The notes beneath the pieces are model-generated. The model was given only the letters and a program-made list of their open reading frames with translations, was not told where the DNA came from and did not search any database. A stretch of 61,590 nt of DNA from a virus (lineage: Duplodnaviria; Caudoviricetes): IMG/VR virus record IMGVR_UViG_3300032053_000072, positions 1-61,590 of that record. One strand, 5' to 3'. This document shows, piece after piece, positions 496 through 61,590 of this stretch. Every line of letters begins with the position of its first letter. The first letter of the stretch is position 1. The position numbers were made by a program, and so were the translations under genes.

Positions 496-1209
496 CTATG
501 ACTCCCGATTGCGGCGCGTTTCCAGCAGCGCCAGCAGCCTAACAGCGACCGGCGCGTCCTTGGCTACCCGGTAGCCGATGCCGATCACGGCATTGCTCCG
601 GCTCCAATCGTCACCATCCGCGCCGTTGGCCTGGATGAACCAAACGTCATCGGCGCCGATGATGAACGTGCTGCCGCCGCCATAGACGTCGAATGTATCT
701 AGGAGCCGTTGGCCCTCTGGGGCCAACACGCAATGCGGCATCTCGCCAGCCGAACGGAACTCCGCGATAATGCTCTCTAGCTCTTGGGCGCGAGCCCTGG
801 CGGCCTGCCGTTCCTCTAGCGCCGCCATAGCAGGCGCGGCTTCCTCCGGTGTGGCCTGCCGACAGTCGGCCCAGTACACCCGGCCCGATTCATCGCCAAC
901 CCCAAAACTCATGCCCTCCTCGCGGTAGTACTGGGAGCCGGCGCTGAGCACGTACAACCACTCTGGATAGCCGCGTGCCAGAAGGCGCTCGTTTGAGTGG
1001 ACGATCTGTGCCTGTGTCCATCCGGTGTAGCCGTAGCCCTCCCCACCACTCAGGCGCCAGGTGAGCTCACTGCTCACCGGCTTTGGCTTGGCTATAGGGC
1101 ACTGGACGTGCGAGGCATCCCGGCCTCGCTCCCAGTTGATTGAGGCTCCCGGTGTGATCTTGCCGCCGCATTTGCCGCATTTACCTGCGTATCGCGCCGT
1201 GATGACCAT
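496..1209 (-). CDS. Hypothetical protein with N-terminal Zn-finger (CxxC...HxxC)
   Basis: 237-aa ORF, RBS GAGGGAG, coupled to its neighbours. Confidence 0.75.
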   Translation of the reverse strand: MVITARYAGKCGKCGGKITPGASINWERGRDASHVQCPIAKPKPVSSELTWRLSGGEGYGYTGWTQAQIVHSNERLLARGYPEWLYVLSAGSQYYREEGMSFGVGDESGRVYWADCRQATPEEAAPAMAALEERQAARARAQELESIIAEFRSAGEMPHCVLAPEGQRLLDTFDVYGGGSTFIIGADDVWFIQANGADGDDWSRSNAVIGIGYRVAKDAPVAVRLLALLETRRNRES

Positions 1210-1384
1210 TGCTGACTCCCTCCTCCTCTGTGAGTTTCTTCGTGGCTACCCATCTCCGACCCCACTTGTCGGCCCTCGCGGCTGCGCGTCGCGCCAGGGA
1301 CAGCCGGCCCTGGTCGAGGTATCGCTGCATGAGGTCTACATTGCGGCCATACTGCTCATGGGCCTGTGCCAGGTTGTTGTCCAC
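1181..1384 (-). CDS. Small hypothetical protein, first gene of the accessory operon
   Basis: AGAGGAG RBS and GTG start directly downstream of a consensus promoter. Confidence 0.7.
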   Translation of the reverse strand: MDNNLAQAHEQYGRNVDLMQRYLDQGRLSLARRAAARADKWGRRWVATKKLTEEEGVSNGHHGAIRR

Positions 1385-1411: not shown

Positions 1412-1440
1412 ATTATAGGCCGCCGCGCCCTACCTGTCAA
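1412..1440 (-). promoter_or_regulatory. Perfect sigma70-type promoter TTGACA-17-TATAAT driving the accessory cassette operon
   Basis: Plus strand tgtcaa 1435-1440 and attata 1412-1417, 17-bp spacer. Confidence 0.92.
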
Positions 1441-1526
1441 GAGACAAACGGGGGCCAAATGGGCGTATGGGCCGAAACACACCCACCAATTGTGAAACGC
1501 GCGGATCACTGGAGATGAACTGCAAT

Positions 1527-1555
1527 GGGAAAGGGGCCGGTGACAAGCCGGCCCC
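1527..1555 (-). terminator. GC-rich hairpin GGGGCCGG-cttgtca-CCGGCCCC followed by TTT
   Basis: 8-bp perfect stem (1533-1540/1548-1555); U-tract is short. Confidence 0.55.
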
Positions 1556-1695
1556 CGCGAAGAGGAGGAAGGGATGATGACAGCGCTGTACGGAGCCTGA
1601 TGCGCCAATCAGGGGGGATGCCCTTCTCACTCGCCCTGGCGTCGCACTACGTCTGTGCGGGACTGGCATTACTACACGCCGCTCCGTATCAGGAC
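1530..1695 (-). ncRNA. Candidate structured small RNA with an anti-Shine-Dalgarno tail
   Basis: Own promoter; 8-bp closing stem TACGGAGC/GCTCCGTA; nested stems; TTCCTCCTCTT segment; terminal hairpin. Confidence 0.5.
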
Positions 1696-1701
1696 GTGAC
1701 C

Positions 1702-1730
1702 ATTATAACCTAGATCATACGCCGTTCCAA
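1702..1730 (-). promoter_or_regulatory. Promoter TTGGAA-17-TATAAT overlapping the endolysin stop
   Basis: Plus strand ttccaa 1725-1730 and attata 1702-1707. Confidence 0.7.
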
Positions 1731-3203
1731 CTCGTAAGCTGGCCCGACGATGTGATCCAGCAGCCGGCGCCTCGTATCCTCCAGTTCGATGCGCATCCGC
1801 TCTATCTCGCGCACGCTCTCCTCGGCATTCCAGCGCAGAGCCGTCGCGTCAAGCGTGACAGGGACAGGCACCGGATTTGGGGTCGGTTGTGGGGTCGGCG
1901 TGGGGCCAACGCTCTCTCCTTTCAGTAGCGGCATCGGGTCAGTCCACCCATTCATCCCGGCCGGGAAGATGCCCAATCGCCGGACGCCGAAGTGCAGGTG
2001 CGGCCCGGTCGAGTTACCGCTGTTGCCGGAGCGCATGATCACATCGCCGGCCCGCACCGTCTGCCCGTTCCGCGCCAGCGTCTCCAAGGCGTGGCCGTAG
2101 AGCGACCAGCCCCAGATGTGCGACAGCCATACCGCGTTGCCATAGCCGCTGCCGGACTGCTGCACCTTCACCACCTTGCCGGCATCGCAGGCGCGGATGG
2201 GCGTGCCCGTCACGACCGAGAAGTCCAGGCCGTTGTGCCCCTCGACGCCGAACTGGCGGTAGTAGCCGGGGTTCTCGCCGAACTTCTGTGTCATGCGATA
2301 GGGCTCCGGCACCGGGCACGTTAGTTTCGGCACCACCACCAGCGACGCCACCGGCGCGCTCAGGCGGTCGAGGAGATCAGGCCGCTTGAGCAACTCCACC
2401 AGGTCGAAACTTTCCCACTGGTTGTTTTCATAGTCCAGGACAAAGAGGCAATACCCCCGTACCTTCGGCGAAAGGAGCGCCGTCGCCATGCGCAGCATCT
2501 CGACGTATTGCTCGAGCGTGACCGCGCCGCGCCAGCCGCGGTTGCCCTGGCCGTCCTCCACGTGGCGATCCATGCCGAACTCGCCCATGATCACCTTGCA
2601 GTCATACGGGATCTGCCAATGCCGGCCCACCAAGTAGGGGTGCGAATCCTTGCCGGCCAGCGGCCCGTAGGGGCCAAAGTACTCGTGCGCTGACCAGTAG
2701 TCGTTTGGCCCCAGCAGCGGGAAGATGGGCGCCATGTAGTCGAACCAGTTCACGTCGTCCGTGCCAATCGAGCGCGGCCAGCCGGTGTTCGTGTTGCCCA
2801 CCATTTGGCCGTAGACGCCCCGCTGTTTGCCGAGGCGCAGACCCTCACAGGTGTAGTCCACCCAGCGCTTAATGAAGTCGGTGCCGATCCAGAGGTGCGG
2901 CTCGTTCTTCCGCATGAAGACGCACTGGCACCAACCGGCATCCTGCCAGCGCAGGAACGCCTCGATCTCCTCCCGCGCTAGCGCCTTTGGGTCTTGCGTC
3001 TCGAGCGCGGCATGGTTGTCCACCAGTGCCCCGTCCACGGCGACGATGATGGTGCCCGGCGAGGAAGCGTGCCAGGCGGCGATCTGTGTTGCTGATGAGC
3101 AGCCGACCCTGACCTTCATCACCGGCGGCTTGTGCGTCGCCACGTACTCGTCTATCAGCGCCGGGAAGTGGCGCGGTAAGGTGTACCAACCGGGAACCAT
3201 CAT
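1710..3203 (-). CDS. Endolysin: glycoside-hydrolase-like N-domain plus M23 peptidase
   Basis: M23 motifs HNGLDF, SLYGH and STGPHLHF; PTPTPQP linker; HEY...GEFG in the N-domain. Confidence 0.85.
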   Translation of the reverse strand: MMVPGWYTLPRHFPALIDEYVATHKPPVMKVRVGCSSATQIAAWHASSPGTIIVAVDGALVDNHAALETQDPKALAREEIEAFLRWQDAGWCQCVFMRKNEPHLWIGTDFIKRWVDYTCEGLRLGKQRGVYGQMVGNTNTGWPRSIGTDDVNWFDYMAPIFPLLGPNDYWSAHEYFGPYGPLAGKDSHPYLVGRHWQIPYDCKVIMGEFGMDRHVEDGQGNRGWRGAVTLEQYVEMLRMATALLSPKVRGYCLFVLDYENNQWESFDLVELLKRPDLLDRLSAPVASLVVVPKLTCPVPEPYRMTQKFGENPGYYRQFGVEGHNGLDFSVVTGTPIRACDAGKVVKVQQSGSGYGNAVWLSHIWGWSLYGHALETLARNGQTVRAGDVIMRSGNSGNSTGPHLHFGVRRLGIFPAGMNGWTDPMPLLKGESVGPTPTPQPTPNPVPVPVTLDATALRWNAEESVREIERMRIELEDTRRRLLDHIVGPAYELERRMI

Positions 3204-3400
3204 TCCTCCTCTTGCCGCTCGCTAGCGGCTACCGGCACCCGCATTGCCAGCACCTGCTGCTTCGTCGCCTCTAGCGCGGCCAGGACCTCGCCCACGCTTG
3301 TCCCTGGCTCGGAGTCAGACTCGACGTGCCAGCGGGCGATCTGCTCGGCGGGCCTGGCCGGGTTGGGTTCCACGGTTATGACTACACGCCATGTCCTCAT
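3200..3400 (-). CDS. Small hypothetical protein
   Basis: Overlaps both neighbours by 4 nt; contains the endolysin RBS. Confidence 0.6.
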   Translation of the reverse strand: MRTWRVVITVEPNPARPAEQIARWHVESDSEPGTSVGEVLAALEATKQQVLAMRVPVAASERQEEE

Positions 3401-4596
3401 CCCGTCTCCAGTAGTTGCTCTTCAAGGAGCGCCAGCCGAGCACCTTGTTGCCTTACCGCGCCCACTAGCAGCATGGAGAGGCGCGTGAAATTTACCATGG
3501 CTCGCGGTCCATCATCGTAGAAGTTCACCACGCGCTCACTCTGTAGCGCTCGCGCATGTTCACCCATCCACTCCCCGAACCCATCGCGTATAGGGTCGCG
3601 GCGCCGCGCGAACTCGGTTTCTAGTGCTCCCAGGAGGGCAACATCGTCGTGCTCGTCGAAAGGTACCCACTCCACATCCGCGTGTGCTGAGCCCTCGACG
3701 TCGAACAGGAACCTCATGAGGCCGTTCGCACCCTCGCCGATAGCGACCAGGTTGGCGTTGGCGCCAGGCGTGGTTATTGATGTGCCCGATTTCTTGGCCG
3801 AGTATAGCTCTATGTAGGCACGCGCGGAGGTGGTTTTTGCAGAGTCGTCAATGACGCCGGCGCCAAACAAAACAAGCGCCTCTGTCGCTTCGCTAAACCC
3901 GGACACTTGTAATCCGCCCGTGGTGGCGGCGGCTTTCCTAAAAGTGGCGAAGCTGTCCACTTCGGTGAACGTCGTCATGCCGTGGTCAACGTCGCTGGAT
4001 TTGAGGGTCAGTATCTCATCGTCAGCCGTGCCCTGGTCGAGCGTCAGTCCGTCCGTCATCTTGGTATTGTGGGTGGCCGTGCCGATGCGCATCTTAGCGC
4101 CGGTGAGTGAGAGTTGATTGTCGGTATCGTCGAACGTGAGCAATGGCCCCGCTGCCTGGCCTATCGTGCCTCCGTCTACCATTGTGATGCGGTTCGCGGC
4201 CCCAGCAGCAACGCCGATGCCTAGCCCTGCCAGTTGCAGGTAGCCGCTGGCATCCGTCTTCAGTATCGCCGCTGCCGCGCCAGGGTTGCTGCTCGGCGTC
4301 AGCTTGGCGATGGTATTGGCCGCGCTCAGCCCGAACACATCCAGAGCAGCGCCGCCCGTGTAGGCATGCTTAGTCAGAATGTTATGGGCGGCAAGGTCAG
4401 CTTCTACGTCCGCCCGGAACGTCGGATCGGCAGCGGCGCCCGAGACAGGGCCGCGTAAGGCGGTGTTGGCGGCCTGGCTGTCGAGCGTCAGCGCCTGGGT
4501 GGAGAGGTCGAGCACCGCCTGGATCGCGGCATCGCCGAGAGTGAGGGCATCGTGGAGTTCTGTTGAAAACACCAACCGCTTCCAAGTGGCTGCCAT
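3397..4596 (-). CDS. Tail fibre/spike with a C-terminal chaperone-like coiled segment
   Basis: G/A/T-rich; C-term VNFTRLSMLLVGAVRQQGARLALLE resembles S74-type chaperone tails; position in tail module. Confidence 0.7.
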   Translation of the reverse strand: MAATWKRLVFSTELHDALTLGDAAIQAVLDLSTQALTLDSQAANTALRGPVSGAAADPTFRADVEADLAAHNILTKHAYTGGAALDVFGLSAANTIAKLTPSSNPGAAAAILKTDASGYLQLAGLGIGVAAGAANRITMVDGGTIGQAAGPLLTFDDTDNQLSLTGAKMRIGTATHNTKMTDGLTLDQGTADDEILTLKSSDVDHGMTTFTEVDSFATFRKAAATTGGLQVSGFSEATEALVLFGAGVIDDSAKTTSARAYIELYSAKKSGTSITTPGANANLVAIGEGANGLMRFLFDVEGSAHADVEWVPFDEHDDVALLGALETEFARRRDPIRDGFGEWMGEHARALQSERVVNFYDDGPRAMVNFTRLSMLLVGAVRQQGARLALLEEQLLETG

Positions 4597-33552: not shown

Positions 33553-33598
33553 CGGATGCCTCCTATGCTGGCAAACTGCTTAGCTTTGTATACTATCA

Positions 33599-34231
33599 TT
33601 ATACTATACTTCTTGGCAGTTTGTCTAGTAGGAGGCCGCCGTAGAACATGGTATTTTGCCTCACTCTTTTGGCCACCACACCCGAAACGAGCTTGATGCC
33701 CGCGATCTCAGTGAGCGAACGCACCATCAGGTGGACAATAAGATCCGCATAGCGCGTCAGCAAGCGATAGTCCGAAAGCCCCCTGGCGCCGATGCTGACG
33801 CGTACAATCTCATTGCTCTGATCCTTCATACCCCGCTCTTCGCCACAAGTGAAAGCGAGCCCAAAACGTCCATCTGCCCGCCTGTGAAGAATACGCCGCG
33901 CCACCAGCCAGGGGCTGACATAGCAATCCAGATCGTATACGTTGTACTCGTCTATGGCCAAGCTCTGCACCGCTCGCTCCGCTGACATGCGCAGTGTGGT
34001 GGCGTGGTTGTGTGGCTGCTCTTTGTCCACGCCCAGGTAAGCCTCAGCATCACGCCATACTTCCTGCCACATCCGCCCCGAAGCGCCGCAATAGAGGTCT
34101 AAGACTCGCGGGCTGGGCAACGTATCCATGAGCCAGCGACGCACGGCCACTTTCTGCCAAAGTCCCGTATTATCATACTGTGGGTTCGTTGCTGACTTCA
34201 ATGCGCACCCCAAGCGCCCTGAGCTGCTCAA
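33599..34231 (-). CDS. Class I SAM-dependent methyltransferase-like protein
   Basis: VLDLYCGASG...YDLDCYVSPW; exact start uncertain. Confidence 0.7.
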   Translation of the reverse strand: MSSSGRLGCALKSATNPQYDNTGLWQKVAVRRWLMDTLPSPRVLDLYCGASGRMWQEVWRDAEAYLGVDKEQPHNHATTLRMSAERAVQSLAIDEYNVYDLDCYVSPWLVARRILHRRADGRFGLAFTCGEERGMKDQSNEIVRVSIGARGLSDYRLLTRYADLIVHLMVRSLTEIAGIKLVSGVVAKRVRQNTMFYGGLLLDKLPRSIV

Positions 34232-40700: not shown

Positions 40701-41953
40701 CTCCCCCTCGTCCTCATCATCCCTCCCCCCATCAGCGGCCGCACGCCCCCGCCACCGCGCTCGCTTTCCCGCTCGTCCGGTTGCACGAACCCACAAGTGA
40801 TGAGCGCCAGACGGAGATCATAGCCGTCACACTGCTCCGCTGGCGTGTAACCGCTGCATACCTCGTCCTTGCACTGCTCGCAGTACATGTTCAGCACGGC
40901 AACCGAGAGTGCCGCAGTTTTGGCAAAGGCTATTGCCTCGTCCTGGGTGTACCTCATCCGTTTCTGCGTCACCGTCCCTCCCTCATCAGCAGCCTTCGCC
41001 ACTCACCACCCCCCGGTGCCCCTCGTGTCGCCCGTTCCATCTTTCGCAGACATCTGGGGCAAAACGGCCTCCCGGCTGACCATTCCGTTGCCCAATGATC
41101 CCAAAACACGCGCGAGCCACAGATGGCTGGGTGATCGTGCCAACCCAACCATAAGTGCAGGACACGACCGCCCCAACATCTACCAATAGTGAACCTTTGT
41201 GGCCGAATATGTGCCCTGTACCCCGCTAAGAGTTGCCACTCTCTCTCGGTTATCATCTCTCTCCCATCACCGGCCGCGCGTCGCCGCCACCCGGGCCTCC
41301 ACGGGTTATTTCGGTTATACTCATCCCAATGTCTCCCTGATGATCGGTGCTACGACGTTGCGGTCAAAGTCCACATGTACAGCCACGATCTTGCCGGGGC
41401 CTTGGCGGTTCACCGGATACCTCCTGTTATTCCCAGCCCCAGCAACCGCAATAGAAGCGGTCGTACCGTTCTTTCGGCTTGTGCTCGAAGAAGGCCAGGT
41501 CCGGGCTGCTATCTTTCTGACACAGGCACGGTTCGCCGCGCCTGCAGCCGTAGTTGGATTCATGGTTACGGCCCTTAGGGGTGGAGCCATAGTGAGCGCA
41601 GCGAGCTCGTCGTCCCGCGAGGTCGGGTGGCTCCACCGGGACGTTGTAGCCGGTGTCGATGCCGAAACAGATCACACACACTGGCAAGCCGGTGTGATCG
41701 CGTCCCTGAGCGGCGTGGCCGCACTTCATCATTTGGGCCATGGTGAAGCCTCCTGTGTCTGGCCCCAGTGGTTCTCGGCCATAGTGGCCGGATGGCGAGC
41801 TTCGCGTGTTGCGTTGGTGAGCCGCAATCGGATGATCCGCTCCTCGAGGGCCATGATGCGTAGGACGTCGTCGTGGTGGGCCACGACGTAGACGACCCGG
41901 GCGAGAAGCGCGCTGACGAAAGCGCCGGCGAGGAATGCGGCGAGATAGGTCAT
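37711..41953 (-). other. Cluster of about 13 small, coupled, mosaic hypothetical genes including three DUF551-like paralogs
   Basis: W.....LP...THW...P motifs in ORFs ending at 38137, 39632 and 39987; paralogous MSKMLSE genes. Confidence 0.65.
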
Positions 41954-55875: not shown

Positions 55876-56219
55876 GCCAGCGCCTCCTTTATGGGCACGC
55901 AAGGCATACATGCCTTTGCGCCGGCGTCGCGTGCGTCTGGTGGCTCGCCAGGGGCATTAGGGAGCATGGCGGCGTCACGCGCCTGGGACGTTCTGGCCTT
56001 CTTCTGGGACACGCAAGGCACAAACATGCCATTGAGCTCGTCACCCAACATGTCGGCCAGCCGGAAGGTAAGCAGTGCGACAGCCGCCTCGGTCACTGGG
56101 TAGTCGCCATCGCGCAGGCGCCGCAAGTGACGGACGGAGTAGCCCGTAAGCATGGCAAGATTGTCGAGGCCGAGTTGCCTTTTCTTGGCCCACTCAAACA
56201 ACTGGGTTTGGTATCTCAT
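55872..56219 (-). CDS. Cro-like HTH regulator
   Basis: LAMLTGYSVRHLRRLR HTH; first gene of the early operon, divergent from the repressor. Confidence 0.75.
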   Translation of the reverse strand: MRYQTQLFEWAKKRQLGLDNLAMLTGYSVRHLRRLRDGDYPVTEAAVALLTFRLADMLGDELNGMFVPCVSQKKARTSQARDAAMLPNAPGEPPDARDAGAKACMPCVPIKEALA

Positions 56220-56251
56220 CGCTCCCTTTCTGGCTCACATCTGGGTGAGTG

Positions 56252-56314
56252 TGTCTCAAGTCTGGGACAAGTATAGCCGAGGTGGGACACAATGTCAATA
56301 GGTTGTGATAAGAT
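56252..56314. promoter_or_regulatory. Lysis/lysogeny switch: leftward TTGACA-17-TATACT, rightward extended -10 TGnTAAGAT, and TGGGACA operator half-sites
   Basis: tgtcaa 56293-56298; agtata 56270-56275; TGTCTCA-N4-TGGGACA 56252-56269; second TGGGACA 56283-56289. Confidence 0.8.
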
Positions 56315-56341
56315 GTCCGCAGATGAGTTTTGGAGTTGACT

Positions 56342-56683
56342 ATGGCAAAAGCGCAAGAGGAATACGCAGGCACGCCGCTGGCGCAATGGCTCGTCGGCCA
56401 ACTAGCGAAGCGGCACATGACAGCACGCGAGGTAGCATTGAAGGCGGGGCTTGGCCATGGGACGATCTACCGTTATCTCGCAGGTGGTCAGGCTGCGCCG
56501 CCGAAATGTAAACAATTGGCGGCATTCTTCGGCGTACCGGATGAGCAGGTCCTATACCTGGCGGGGCATATTGACCCGCCCCCCGATCACGACCTCTTTA
56601 CGAGGCAGGTGGGGACCCTGGCAAGAGATTGGCCACCAGATCGGAAACGTCGCTTTCTGAAGCTGGCGGAGAGCTTTGAATGA
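56342..56683 (+). CDS. CI-like XRE repressor without a peptidase domain
   Basis: REVALKAGLGHGTIYRYL HTH; LAAFFGV...LYLAG; only ~113 aa. Confidence 0.88.
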   Translation: MAKAQEEYAGTPLAQWLVGQLAKRHMTAREVALKAGLGHGTIYRYLAGGQAAPPKCKQLAAFFGVPDEQVLYLAGHIDPPPDHDLFTRQVGTLARDWPPDRKRRFLKLAESFE

Positions 56684-57768: not shown

Positions 57769-58398
57769 GTGGCGGAGTTGGAAGCGAAACCTCATTGCGA
57801 GCATTGCCATGCAGAGTTGCCCCCGGCAGGGCTTGTATGTCCTCAGTGCGGTCGTCCTCAGTATGCGCAGCCAACCAAGCGCGTAACCAAGTATCTCTCA
57901 GACCGCACGATCATATCGCTGCTCATACCCATCTCCATTGTCGGTTTCATCCTGGTGGCGCTACTGAGCAAGAGCAACCCGCCAGTCCAGTCCGCCTCGA
58001 GTGGCGGAAGCGGCAAAAGTTCCTATGCCCAAGAGATGCGGACGCCGATGGGTAACTTAGGATTGTGGATTCCACATTTGCGGTCTTTTCTGGAGGAGTC
58101 CGCTAAGGGCAACCCCATAGTCTACTGGTGCAATACGAAGGGGTATGCCCAGGTCTCTTCCGAGGGAAGCCAGATCGTCCGCCAATTGGGCCAGATTACC
58201 CCACCTTCAGACCTGGCTACTGCTCATGGCGGGCTTCAAGCGAGTATCCGCTCTGTTCTTGGCTCCATGGCCGCGGCTGAGGTGGACCTTTGCATCAATG
58301 GCGATATCCCCGCAGCGACAACCCGCATGGATGAAATCACCGTTGGTGTGCGCGGCATGACCAGTTGGCTGCAAGTCATGACCGAGAAGATGCAGTAG
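57769..58398 (+). CDS. Zn-ribbon plus single-TM membrane protein
   Basis: CEHC...CPQCG, TM helix, helical C-domain. Confidence 0.8.
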   Translation: MAELEAKPHCEHCHAELPPAGLVCPQCGRPQYAQPTKRVTKYLSDRTIISLLIPISIVGFILVALLSKSNPPVQSASSGGSGKSSYAQEMRTPMGNLGLWIPHLRSFLEESAKGNPIVYWCNTKGYAQVSSEGSQIVRQLGQITPPSDLATAHGGLQASIRSVLGSMAAAEVDLCINGDIPAATTRMDEITVGVRGMTSWLQVMTEKMQ

Positions 58399-58412
58399 GA
58401 GCCGTCTACCCC

Positions 58413-59891
58413 ATGCCGCGCCGCCGCAACTCCCGCTCCGCTCGCGCGACCGTCCGGCCCCTGCAGGCCGGTGACGAGGTGTGGGCATACCTGCGCGTCT
58501 CGACTGGCAAGCAGGCGGAGGCCGGTTTGCCCATTAACGGTCAGCGCGAGGCCATCGAGGCATACTGCCAGGCGCGTGCCTATCGTCTGACGCGCACCTA
58601 CTCTGACGAGGGTATCTCCGGCACGACCGATCACCGTGCCCAGTTCCAGACGATGGTCGATGAGGCACAAGCGTTGCGCCCGCGCGCCATCATCCTCTGG
58701 TCGTGGTCGCGTTTCAGCCGGGACCAGAACGACGCTGCATTCTACAAGGCGCTCTTGCGCCGGCATGGTGTGGATCTGCTCACGGTGGAGGATGAGGTGC
58801 CCAACGTCGAGGGGTTCGGCAACATCCTGGAGGCTCTGATCCACTGGCGAGACGAGCGGGAGAACGTGGCACGTGGCCAGGCCACCAAACGCGGCCATCA
58901 TGCCCTGGCGCATCTGGGCTACCACCCCGCCGGCAATGGCAACTGCCCCGTCGGCTACCGGGCCGCCACGGTGCTGGTGACGATAGCCGGCAGAGAGGGT
59001 GAGCGCCGGCGCATTGAACTCGACCCCGCCCTGGCCCCGATGGTGCGCCGCGCCTATGAGATGCGCTTGGCCGGCGGCAACTTCGAGGCGATCAACGAGG
59101 CCTGCCAACTCTTTGCCCACCCCAACGACCTCGGTGCCATGTTCCGCAACCCGACCTACCATGGCCGTTACCACTGGGGGGACACCGAGGTAGCCGTGCC
59201 GGCCATCGTCACTGAAGCCGAATGGCAGCGGGTGTACGACGGGCTCTCACGGGGCCGCGGCGGCGCCTACTCGCGCACCAGGGCCAGCGACTACCTCCTC
59301 AGTGGCCTCGTCTGGTGCGGTGTCTGTGGTGCGCGGATGAAGGGCCACTCTTGCTCACCCCGGGGCCGGCGCTGGCACTACTACCGCTGTTTCACGCCTG
59401 ACTGCATCATCCGCGGCATACCACGAGCGGAGCTCGAGGCGGCGGTGACGGAGCGCCTGATCACCCGCTACCTGACGCCACGTCTGGTGGCTGATATGGA
59501 GGAACGGGCGCGCCAGCATCAGCAGGACAGCGGCCAGCAGGAGCGGATCGCGGCACTGCGAGCCGAGGTGCGGCTGCACGACAAGGCGATCACTAACCTG
59601 GTTAGTGCTCTGGAGAGAGCGCCCGATACGCGCGAGTTGACTGAGCGCCTGCGACAGCGCGGCCAGGAGCGCGGGCGCCTACTCTCCAAGATCGCGGCGC
59701 TGGAACATTCCGTTCCCACCGTGCCGAGTGTCGAGGACGTGCTGGGGTTGCGGGAGCGGCTCAAGCAGGCGCTCGTGGACGGGGAGCGGCGCCTTGCCCG
59801 CGAGTTGATCCGGCAGTGTGTCGAGCGGGTCACGGTTGAGGGGTCGCGTGAATGGCGGGTCAAGTGGCGCCTACTCGTTTGTCCACGGTAG
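58413..59891 (+). CDS. int: Large serine recombinase (integrase)
   Basis: YLRVST, DEGISG, SRFSR, recombinase domain, LLSGL..CGVCG...YYRC zinc ribbon, coiled coil. Confidence 0.95.
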   Translation: MPRRRNSRSARATVRPLQAGDEVWAYLRVSTGKQAEAGLPINGQREAIEAYCQARAYRLTRTYSDEGISGTTDHRAQFQTMVDEAQALRPRAIILWSWSRFSRDQNDAAFYKALLRRHGVDLLTVEDEVPNVEGFGNILEALIHWRDERENVARGQATKRGHHALAHLGYHPAGNGNCPVGYRAATVLVTIAGREGERRRIELDPALAPMVRRAYEMRLAGGNFEAINEACQLFAHPNDLGAMFRNPTYHGRYHWGDTEVAVPAIVTEAEWQRVYDGLSRGRGGAYSRTRASDYLLSGLVWCGVCGARMKGHSCSPRGRRWHYYRCFTPDCIIRGIPRAELEAAVTERLITRYLTPRLVADMEERARQHQQDSGQQERIAALRAEVRLHDKAITNLVSALERAPDTRELTERLRQRGQERGRLLSKIAALEHSVPTVPSVEDVLGLRERLKQALVDGERRLARELIRQCVERVTVEGSREWRVKWRLLVCPR

Positions 59892-61446: not shown

Positions 61447-61516
61447 CCGCCTCCTCTCATTCGGGTTGGCCCCGGTGGTGAGCCGGGGTCTGAGTGCGTG
61501 GGGAGCGGTTGGGCTA
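61447..61516 (-). repeat. Cassette repeat copy A (its part from 61464 on recurs at 1-53)
   Basis: Hairpin at 61470-61488 plus RBS. Confidence 0.92.
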
Positions 61517-61590
61517 GGGAGTCACCCCCGCCTTCCGGCATAGGCGCCGATACTCGTCTTTTACTGTCTGGGGTAGGCCACCTTGCCTCT

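Follow-up and report, generated by a model that had tools for sequence, protein, structure and literature searches.

What is encoded between the endolysin gene and the accessory genes of the phage analysed here, and could it be a gene for a small RNA (sRNA)? The window, meaning the whole stretch of DNA under analysis, is the complete virus record IMGVR_UViG_3300032053_000072 (Caudoviricetes; 61,590 bp), in which nearly all long open reading frames (ORFs) are on the minus strand. The candidate unit lies within positions 1530-1730 on that strand, between the late (structural and lysin) operon and an accessory operon, and it is made up of a promoter-like site, an insert that we call the core, a pyrimidine tail and a hairpin. 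Its anatomy, the rarity of its motifs, its conservation in one diverged relative and the lack of a conserved reading frame are consistent with a short non-coding RNA unit that runs from promoter to hairpin at the operon boundary and carries a general seed against Shine-Dalgarno (SD) sequences. We prefer this reading tentatively and rate it somewhat short of probable.

Parts of the unit behind the endolysin stop

In the direction of the minus strand, the parts of the unit and the second promoter behind it are the following.

1702-1730, minus strand: promoter-like site P1, TTGGAA-17-TATAAT, matching 10/12 consensus bases with a 17-nt spacer
1583-1695, minus strand: the core, 113 nt, an insert closed by a long terminal stem with extendable arms
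1579-1560 (to 1559), minus strand: pyrimidine tail CATCATCCCTTCCTCCTCTT, of anti-SD/anti-start type; the plus strand reads an SD followed by ATGATG
1532-1556, minus strand: GC-rich hairpin of 8-9 bp (9 pairs in the minimum free energy (MFE) fold) with loop CUUGUCA and a weak U tail, UUUCCC following
1412-1440, minus strand: promoter P2, a perfect TTGACA-17-TATAAT (12/12) ahead of the accessory operon, kept in the diverged relative L022 described below

A sigma-70-like site stands directly upstream of the candidate sRNA in the window. The -35 box of promoter P1 lies inside the last endolysin codons and its -10 box just past the stop (1710-1712). Counting as strong those sites with at most two mismatches to the 12 consensus promoter bases and at most one mismatch in the -10 box, we found only four strong sigma-70-like sites in the 61.6 kb, all on the minus strand. 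Promoter P1 is among them, and the other three (P2, 56298-56270 and 33627-33598) also precede genes. TATAAT itself occurs three times on the minus strand, two of these at this locus. The hairpin is presumed to be the terminator of both the promoter P1 transcripts and the late operon. A sequence-only reading of the window had described a promoter at the endolysin stop and a terminal hairpin; both motifs are present (1730-1702 and 1556-1532), and so are all the other sequence features it described, including the endolysin start at 3213-3198 and the 11-base complementarity between that start and the tail.

The tail at 1579-1560 reads CAUCAUCCCUUCCUCCUCUU. No other homopurine or homopyrimidine run in the genome, on either strand, is as long as its 16 nt of pyrimidines (1574-1559); 13 such runs, this one included, reach 12 nt. 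GAGGAGG occurs 22 times on the minus strand versus twice on the plus strand, and one of the two plus-strand copies is the complement of the tail. The 11-mer AAGAGGAGGAA has exactly one occurrence per strand. Judged by these counts, the promoter-like site and the tail go beyond chance. The core is closed by arms at 1688-1681 and 1596-1589, UACGGAGC and GCUCCGUA, whose pairing is called helix P1 and is distinct from promoter P1.

Two minus-strand ORFs run through these parts. One of 79 aa (1669-1430) crosses the hairpin and the spacer behind it and extends into the -35 box of P2, and one of 70 aa (1608-1396) crosses the hairpin, the spacer and P2. Both frames, as well as a plus-strand frame of 37 aa, are broken by deletions at 1576 and 1612 that are present in all three of the sediment runs covering this part (3/3). 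No reading frame in 1530-1710 is conserved on either strand (the 79-aa ORF was outside the protein-database search), which agrees with the earlier impression that no convincing ORF follows the promoter.

A diverged relative and contigs of other sediment runs

Scans with the endolysin identified four metagenome loci and one genome locus. L022 is a 3.8-kb contig filed under a Dehalococcoidia metagenome-assembled genome (uncultured bacterium), and its endolysin shows 86% protein identity and 82% DNA identity (1237/1501 columns), with 72% over the last 300 nt. Behind the stop come TGGTATAAT, 10 bases, TCATCCCTTCCTCCTC, the hairpin, a spacer and P2 with its ribosome binding site (RBS). The tail sequence TCATCCCTTCCTCCTC is identical at 16/16 positions. 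In the hairpin, the 5' arm holds one more T and the 3' arm one more G than in the window, which adds one pair and leaves the loop unchanged. Identity is only ~66% in the spacer behind the hairpin (60/91 columns) and 72% in the final 300 nt of the endolysin gene, so that tail and hairpin are better conserved than the sequence around them. The TATAAT of promoter P1 is also kept, with TGG directly before it, together with a weaker -35 box (CTGGAA) at an 18-nt spacer.

The core is missing entirely from L022, which keeps TATAAT, tail and hairpin, and we therefore regard the core as a lineage-specific insert outside the conserved unit. The tail is unpaired in the short RNA predicted for L022. From L022 position 1935 onward, the genes behind P2 differ from those in the window.

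The core is present with ~2% differences in contigs of three other sediment runs. Runs X2, X4 and X5 each hold one core-spanning contig, and X3 has no contig over this part. The X4 contig (record 17) covers 1553-1832 and the X5 contig (record 25) covers 1529-1815, each with 6 differing letters and 2 gaps, and the X2 contig (record 1) extends over 1394-2318, where it differs at 66 letters and by 26 gaps. All three lack one nucleotide within CATCAT, at 1576, and one at 1612, where C6 becomes C5. Among runs X2-X5, no contig joined across the core. The X5 contig matches through the hairpin and diverges at 1529, its 621 further letters being unlike the window, and the X2 contig departs from the window near 1394, immediately before the first ORF that P2 heads. 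Read from these alignments, there are two mosaic junctions, one just past the hairpin (X5) and one just past the RBS of P2 (X2 and L022). Given where the contigs and L022 diverge, the unit of promoter, core, tail and hairpin therefore travels with the late operon. The divergence of L022 and X2 also means that different cargo genes stand behind the same P2 promoter.

Other searches yielded no further copies of the unit. The unit motifs were not found at up to two mismatches in L018, L020 or L021, and L019 ends before the 3' end of the endolysin gene. In the viral_contigs collection, the endolysin protein had no relative, an alignment of three endolysins gave 34 pattern hits and no relative, and DNA patterns for the tail plus hairpin, for P2 plus RBS and for the hairpin with its loop each gave 0 matches. 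A looser pattern of TATAAT, gap and tail was rejected; its four matches in viral_contigs (30-37% G+C) are without the hairpin, and by a rough estimate they amount to about the number expected by chance. The 237-aa protein encoded behind P2 led to 16 distant loci, none with a comparable pyrimidine run and hairpin. Among 401 genomes of the class, only G001 gave a significant match, and 11 short matches with E of 4e-4 to 9e-3 per genome were taken as chance; among 93 genomes of the order, 1/93 matched, the genome itself. The endolysin protein matched 1/401 genomes, and the phages collection returned a single irrelevant 90-nt match.

In L020, the endolysin homologue (92% identical) is split across two frames, 3004-3882 and 3603-4493, which reflects either a frameshift or an assembly error.

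Readings of the unit and its core

We infer that promoter P1 fires, that the hairpin terminates transcription and that the resulting RNA acts by pairing. In the proposed mechanism, the unit would consist of a host-type promoter (P1), a pyrimidine stretch of 16-20 nt and a stable GC hairpin, at which the transcript would end and which would double as the terminator of the late operon. The RNA would be ~50 nt long in L022, with the pyrimidine stretch free at its 5' end, and ~165 nt long in the window, where the 113-nt self-closing insert would lie between the start site and the pyrimidine stretch. This stretch would pair with SD plus ATGATG starts and block ribosome binding on several phage or host mRNAs. 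Because purine-rich starts of this kind are used by many phage genes, several mRNAs would be affected and not the endolysin mRNA particularly. The core would be a lineage-specific insertion, either functionless or, more boldly, a mask for the seed.

Pairing predictions are consistent with many partners. The site that the sequence-only reading had proposed as the target is the following.

3198-3213, minus strand: SD and start of the endolysin gene, AAGAGGAGGAATGATG, 16 nt

We scanned the 24-nt tail against 30-nt windows of the minus-strand transcriptome (n=12,312; mean -8.5, sd 4.3 kcal/mol). The endolysin start forms a duplex of -23.5 kcal/mol with the tail and ranks about 20th after neighbouring windows are merged, so that it is no privileged target. 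The best partners are 40735-40706 (-34.1 kcal/mol), 40990-40961 (-29.9 kcal/mol) and 31610-31581 (-28.0 kcal/mol); like the other top partners, they are start regions rich in purines, with an SD followed by ATGATG or GTG. In a crude list of 113 ORF-start rows the endolysin takes 7th place, one of the higher rows being the same site. The SD region of the endolysin is altered in L022 and in L020, and the tail is unchanged in L022. Judged by its sequence, the tail is a generic anti-SD/anti-start sequence, and a specific link to the endolysin is unsupported.

The two best partners, at 40706-40735 and 40961-40990 on the minus strand, are SD/start regions of the GGGAGGGA type within one listed ORF of 176 aa. 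They probably mark the starts of separate small genes and may belong to the series of cassette repeats that the sequence-only reading had noted.

Several points weigh against an RNA of this kind. Among the sequencing runs listed for this stretch there are DNA contigs only and no RNA run. The comparison consists of one readable diverged relative (L022) and three near-identical contigs, and evidence of covariation is limited to the single pair-preserving indel in the L022 hairpin. Three of the four informative loci (L018, L020 and L021) carry a different small ORF directly behind the endolysin gene and no such unit. A terminator scan called the hairpin neither in the window nor in L022, and the hairpin has no proper U tract (three U in a row). 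The promoter scan likewise missed promoter P1 of L022, because its -35 box matches at only 3/6 positions. The predicted fold of the window RNA varies with the assumed 5' end: from 1700, the MFE structure has helix P1 closed and the tail free, and from 1696, tail bases 1573-1562 pair with 1632-1621 (p 0.41-0.88). Finally, any pyrimidine run complements SD sequences, and pairing scores therefore prove nothing about function.

The main rival, which we rate only slightly below the preferred reading, is that the locus is an operon boundary only, with the hairpin as late-operon terminator and promoter P1 as the upstream member of a tandem pair with P2. Read-through from promoter P1 would then feed the accessory operon, and the pyrimidine run would be a spacer, a protein site or terminator context. 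The unit does lie exactly between the two operons, P2 following 120 nt behind the hairpin, and a U tract as weak as this one points to leaky termination. L022 keeps the entire intergenic stretch, spacer and P2 included, and conservation of the tail therefore exceeds that of its surroundings only modestly. In a modelled read-through RNA of L022, the tail pairs with the SD and start of the first accessory gene (5.9/9, against 0.01/9 in the window; both values are summed pair probabilities between the tail and this SD/start). However, a mere boundary would not lead one to expect a tail identical at 16/16 positions next to a spacer of ~66% identity, nor a tail that holds the longest pyrimidine run in the genome. 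Moreover, a promoter placed ~20-165 nt ahead of a strong hairpin would be an odd feed for an operon that has a perfect promoter of its own. The idea that the tail acts in cis on the first accessory gene was considered separately and rejected, being predicted in L022 and not in the window.

For the core itself, one possibility, which we hold to be less likely than not, is a selfish or accidental insertion, either a palindrome-ended element or a recombination scar, that has no function and is tolerated through its self-folding. Its presence in one close relative and absence from another, its extendable terminal inverted repeat of 8-13 bp and the lack of a family match would fit such an origin. 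On the other hand, the core is single-copy, with no second copy in the phage genome or in the loci of its relatives, and no clear target-site duplication is visible. Nor was it found in the Chloroflexota genomes searched (401 + 93 + 401), except for a 27-nt chance match; this one match, obtained with the core alone against 401 genomes of the phylum, has unrelated flanks and is overlapped by long ORFs on both strands.

The model that goes with the sequence-only reading, a structured sensor- or ribozyme-like domain joined to a tail that specifically silences endolysin translation, we now consider improbable. It draws on the 11 contiguous complementary bases, the uniqueness of the 11-mer on each strand, the 7th rank of the endolysin start among the 113 crude rows and the retention of the core in the three other sediment runs. 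Its four-helix multibranch model survives in part: the closing stem, helix P1 (pair probability ~1.0), and the core hairpin CGCAC/GUGCG (0.86-0.96) are strongly predicted, whereas GGCGU/ACGCC (0.05) and CUGAU/AUCAG (0.02) are disfavoured, and the model as a whole reaches -28.6 kcal/mol versus -44.7 kcal/mol for the MFE structure. The RNA of 176 nt folds with a z-score of -1.07, 26/200 shuffles folding as well, and the core alone is borderline at -1.98 (8/200 shuffles as good), with -1.45 for its complement. By these predictions, the RNA fold is not clearly beyond chance.

The sequence-only reading had not recognised a known riboswitch or ribozyme in the core, and a search of the whole window against Rfam 15 at gathering scores gave 0 matches. 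At E <=10, the region 1350-1850 gave two chance rows, both on the plus strand and below the cut-off (Rhino_CRE, 16 bits vs a cut-off of 45, and sR17, 11 vs 36). The relatives offer no compensatory changes for the core, the sole diverged one, L022, being without it and the other carriers differing by ~2%. The notion of an unclassified structured domain thus loses ground, with the core absent from L022 although the rest of the unit is kept, no Rfam match and a borderline z-score. The proposed silencing of the endolysin fares no better: about 19 sites pair better than its start, its SD is altered in L022 and L020 with no matching change of the tail in L022, and the deletion at 1576 in the relatives removes one base of the part supposed to pair with ATGATG.

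Among the coding readings, the most serious alternative is a plus-strand gene, because GAGGAGG is so rare on that strand; we regard it as very unlikely. Here the tail would be, on its complement, a strong SD followed by ATGATG that starts a small plus-strand ORF. This would be an ORF of 8 codons; its TGA overlaps the start codon (ATG, 1600) of a second ORF, which encodes a hydrophobic peptide of 37 aa and closes with a CTAG shared with the endolysin stop. One of only two plus-strand GAGGAGG copies does stand here at ideal spacing to ATGATG, the SD and ATG are kept in L022, and a plus-strand ORF of 62 aa is recorded as a called protein of this virus record. However, the ATG in L022 opens an unrelated ORF of 9 codons, and the 37-aa ORF lies inside the insert that L022 lacks and is frameshifted at 1612 in 3/3 covering runs. 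In addition, no plus-strand promoter-like site was found, almost all genes are on the minus strand, and a search of the 62-aa ORF against 5.8 billion proteins (34-109 aa) returned only itself.

The boldest reading, and a highly improbable one, is a gated anti-SD RNA, in which an ancestral seed RNA of ~50 nt would have gained the 113-nt insert with a seed-masking purine stretch (1632-1621) and would switch between a form with helix P1 closed and the seed free and one with the seed sequestered (predicted to lie within ~1 kcal/mol of each other), temperature, ligand or co-transcriptional kinetics then deciding when this temperate, Chloroflexota-associated phage damps the translation of strong-SD mRNAs. 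Masking of the tail by the core was itself rejected as a significant feature: its duplex of -17.7 kcal/mol is matched or surpassed by 25% of 1,071 genome windows.

Comparable RNAs and the surrounding phage

The preferred reading, a short promoter-to-hairpin RNA with a general anti-SD seed, can be set beside several known systems. The c4 RNA is processed out of the leader of the operon that it targets. The sar and OOP RNAs each run from their own promoter to a terminator, and each is encoded opposite its target, to which it is perfectly complementary. DicF acts by pairing at the start region of ftsZ. In Firmicutes, sRNAs of the RsaE/RoxS type use C/U-rich single-stranded motifs to pair with the G-rich SDs of several mRNAs. 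Those sRNAs are chromosomal, belong to curated families and carry the seed in a hairpin loop, whereas no curated family was matched here. To our knowledge, and within a non-exhaustive literature search, no phage sRNA has been described in Dehalococcoidia.

The c4 antisense RNA of phages P1 and P7, whose complementary sequences are likely located in RNA loops, acts on ant mRNA and so offers the likeness of a short phage-encoded RNA that blocks translation by pairing around an RBS, as outlined in PMC12197685. In contrast, the candidate seed here is a linear pyrimidine run with many possible partners, and no Rfam family was matched. The table in PMC12197685 lists sar of P22 as a trans-acting RNA of 68/69 nt and OOP of lambda as a cis-acting RNA of 77 nt. 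These very short phage RNAs are comparable in size to the L022 form of ~50 nt; however, the unit described here overlaps no opposite-strand gene, and no target is more than partly complementary to it. DicF of the Qin prophage is given in PMC12197685 as a trans-acting RNA of 53 nt with a terminator-like 3' hairpin that inhibits ftsZ expression. It differs in being a product of the dicB operon transcript with defined host targets (PMC12197685), and the unit has no sequence or Rfam relation to it. An endolysin repressor has been proposed in PAK_P4as15 of Pseudomonas phage PAK_P4, a cis-antisense RNA of ~550 nt (PMC12197685), whereas the RNA considered here would be encoded on the endolysin strand, downstream of that gene, and has better predicted partners than the endolysin start.

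By analogy, the simple form in L022 is akin to those minimal RNAs of phages and prophages whose site of action is the RBS, c4, sar and DicF among them. If the preferred reading is true, the unit would be a very small general anti-SD regulator carried by a temperate phage, and it would show how a gene of this kind can tolerate an insertion or exploit it. The features that look most unusual, namely the structured domain and the targeting of the endolysin, are the very ones weakened by the evidence; the unit remains a candidate.

The genes on either side of the unit are as follows.

1710-3203, minus strand: lysin gene (endolysin), 497 aa, containing an M23 peptidase domain; it closes the structural/late block
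1181-1384, minus strand: first ORF behind promoter P2, 67 aa, with a GTG start and the SD AGAGGAGAC; no family match

The endolysin matches Pfam Peptidase_M23 at 5.9e-23 as well as the PHROG families endolysin and metallo-endopeptidase. P2 heads a set of small ORFs, for which a defence function was looked for with PADLOC on seven proteins; the result was unconvincing, with a single row at E 0.006. ARAGORN found 0 tRNA or tmRNA genes in the whole window. Between the hairpin and P2, the 13-mer CACAATTGGTGGG (1484-1496, minus strand) is identical in L022 and partly palindromic. As an operator it was rejected; the palindrome pattern has 3 matches genome-wide versus 1.3 expected, and 12/100 shuffles equal this.

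The two ends of the window, 1-127 and 61464-61590, are identical. This 127-nt identity is better explained by a circular or circularly permuted genome whose assembly overlaps at its ends than by true terminal repeats, and it may be connected with the word size of the assembler. A large serine recombinase with Resolvase, Recombinase and Zn_ribbon_recom domains is encoded at 58365-59891 on the plus strand, and for this reason the phage is probably temperate. This is also suggested by a repressor-like gene with an HTH_3 domain (56330-56683, plus strand), which faces the promoter-like site TTGACA-17-TATACT at 56298-56270 on the minus strand. Behind this site lies an ORF of 115 aa without a family match, and the region 56194-56683 is likely the lysis-lysogeny switch.

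Two further promoter-like sites deserve mention. An AT-rich gap that precedes a gene with an AGGAGG RBS contains TAGACA-18-TATAAT (33598-33627, minus strand), which may be the promoter of a later transcription block. L022 has a third perfect TTGACA-17-TATAAT at 3542-3570, in the same GCCTATAATGTA context as P2. With an ATG 7 nt past its -10 box, the mRNA may be leaderless, and the product, read by eye, looks like a helix-turn-helix regulator.

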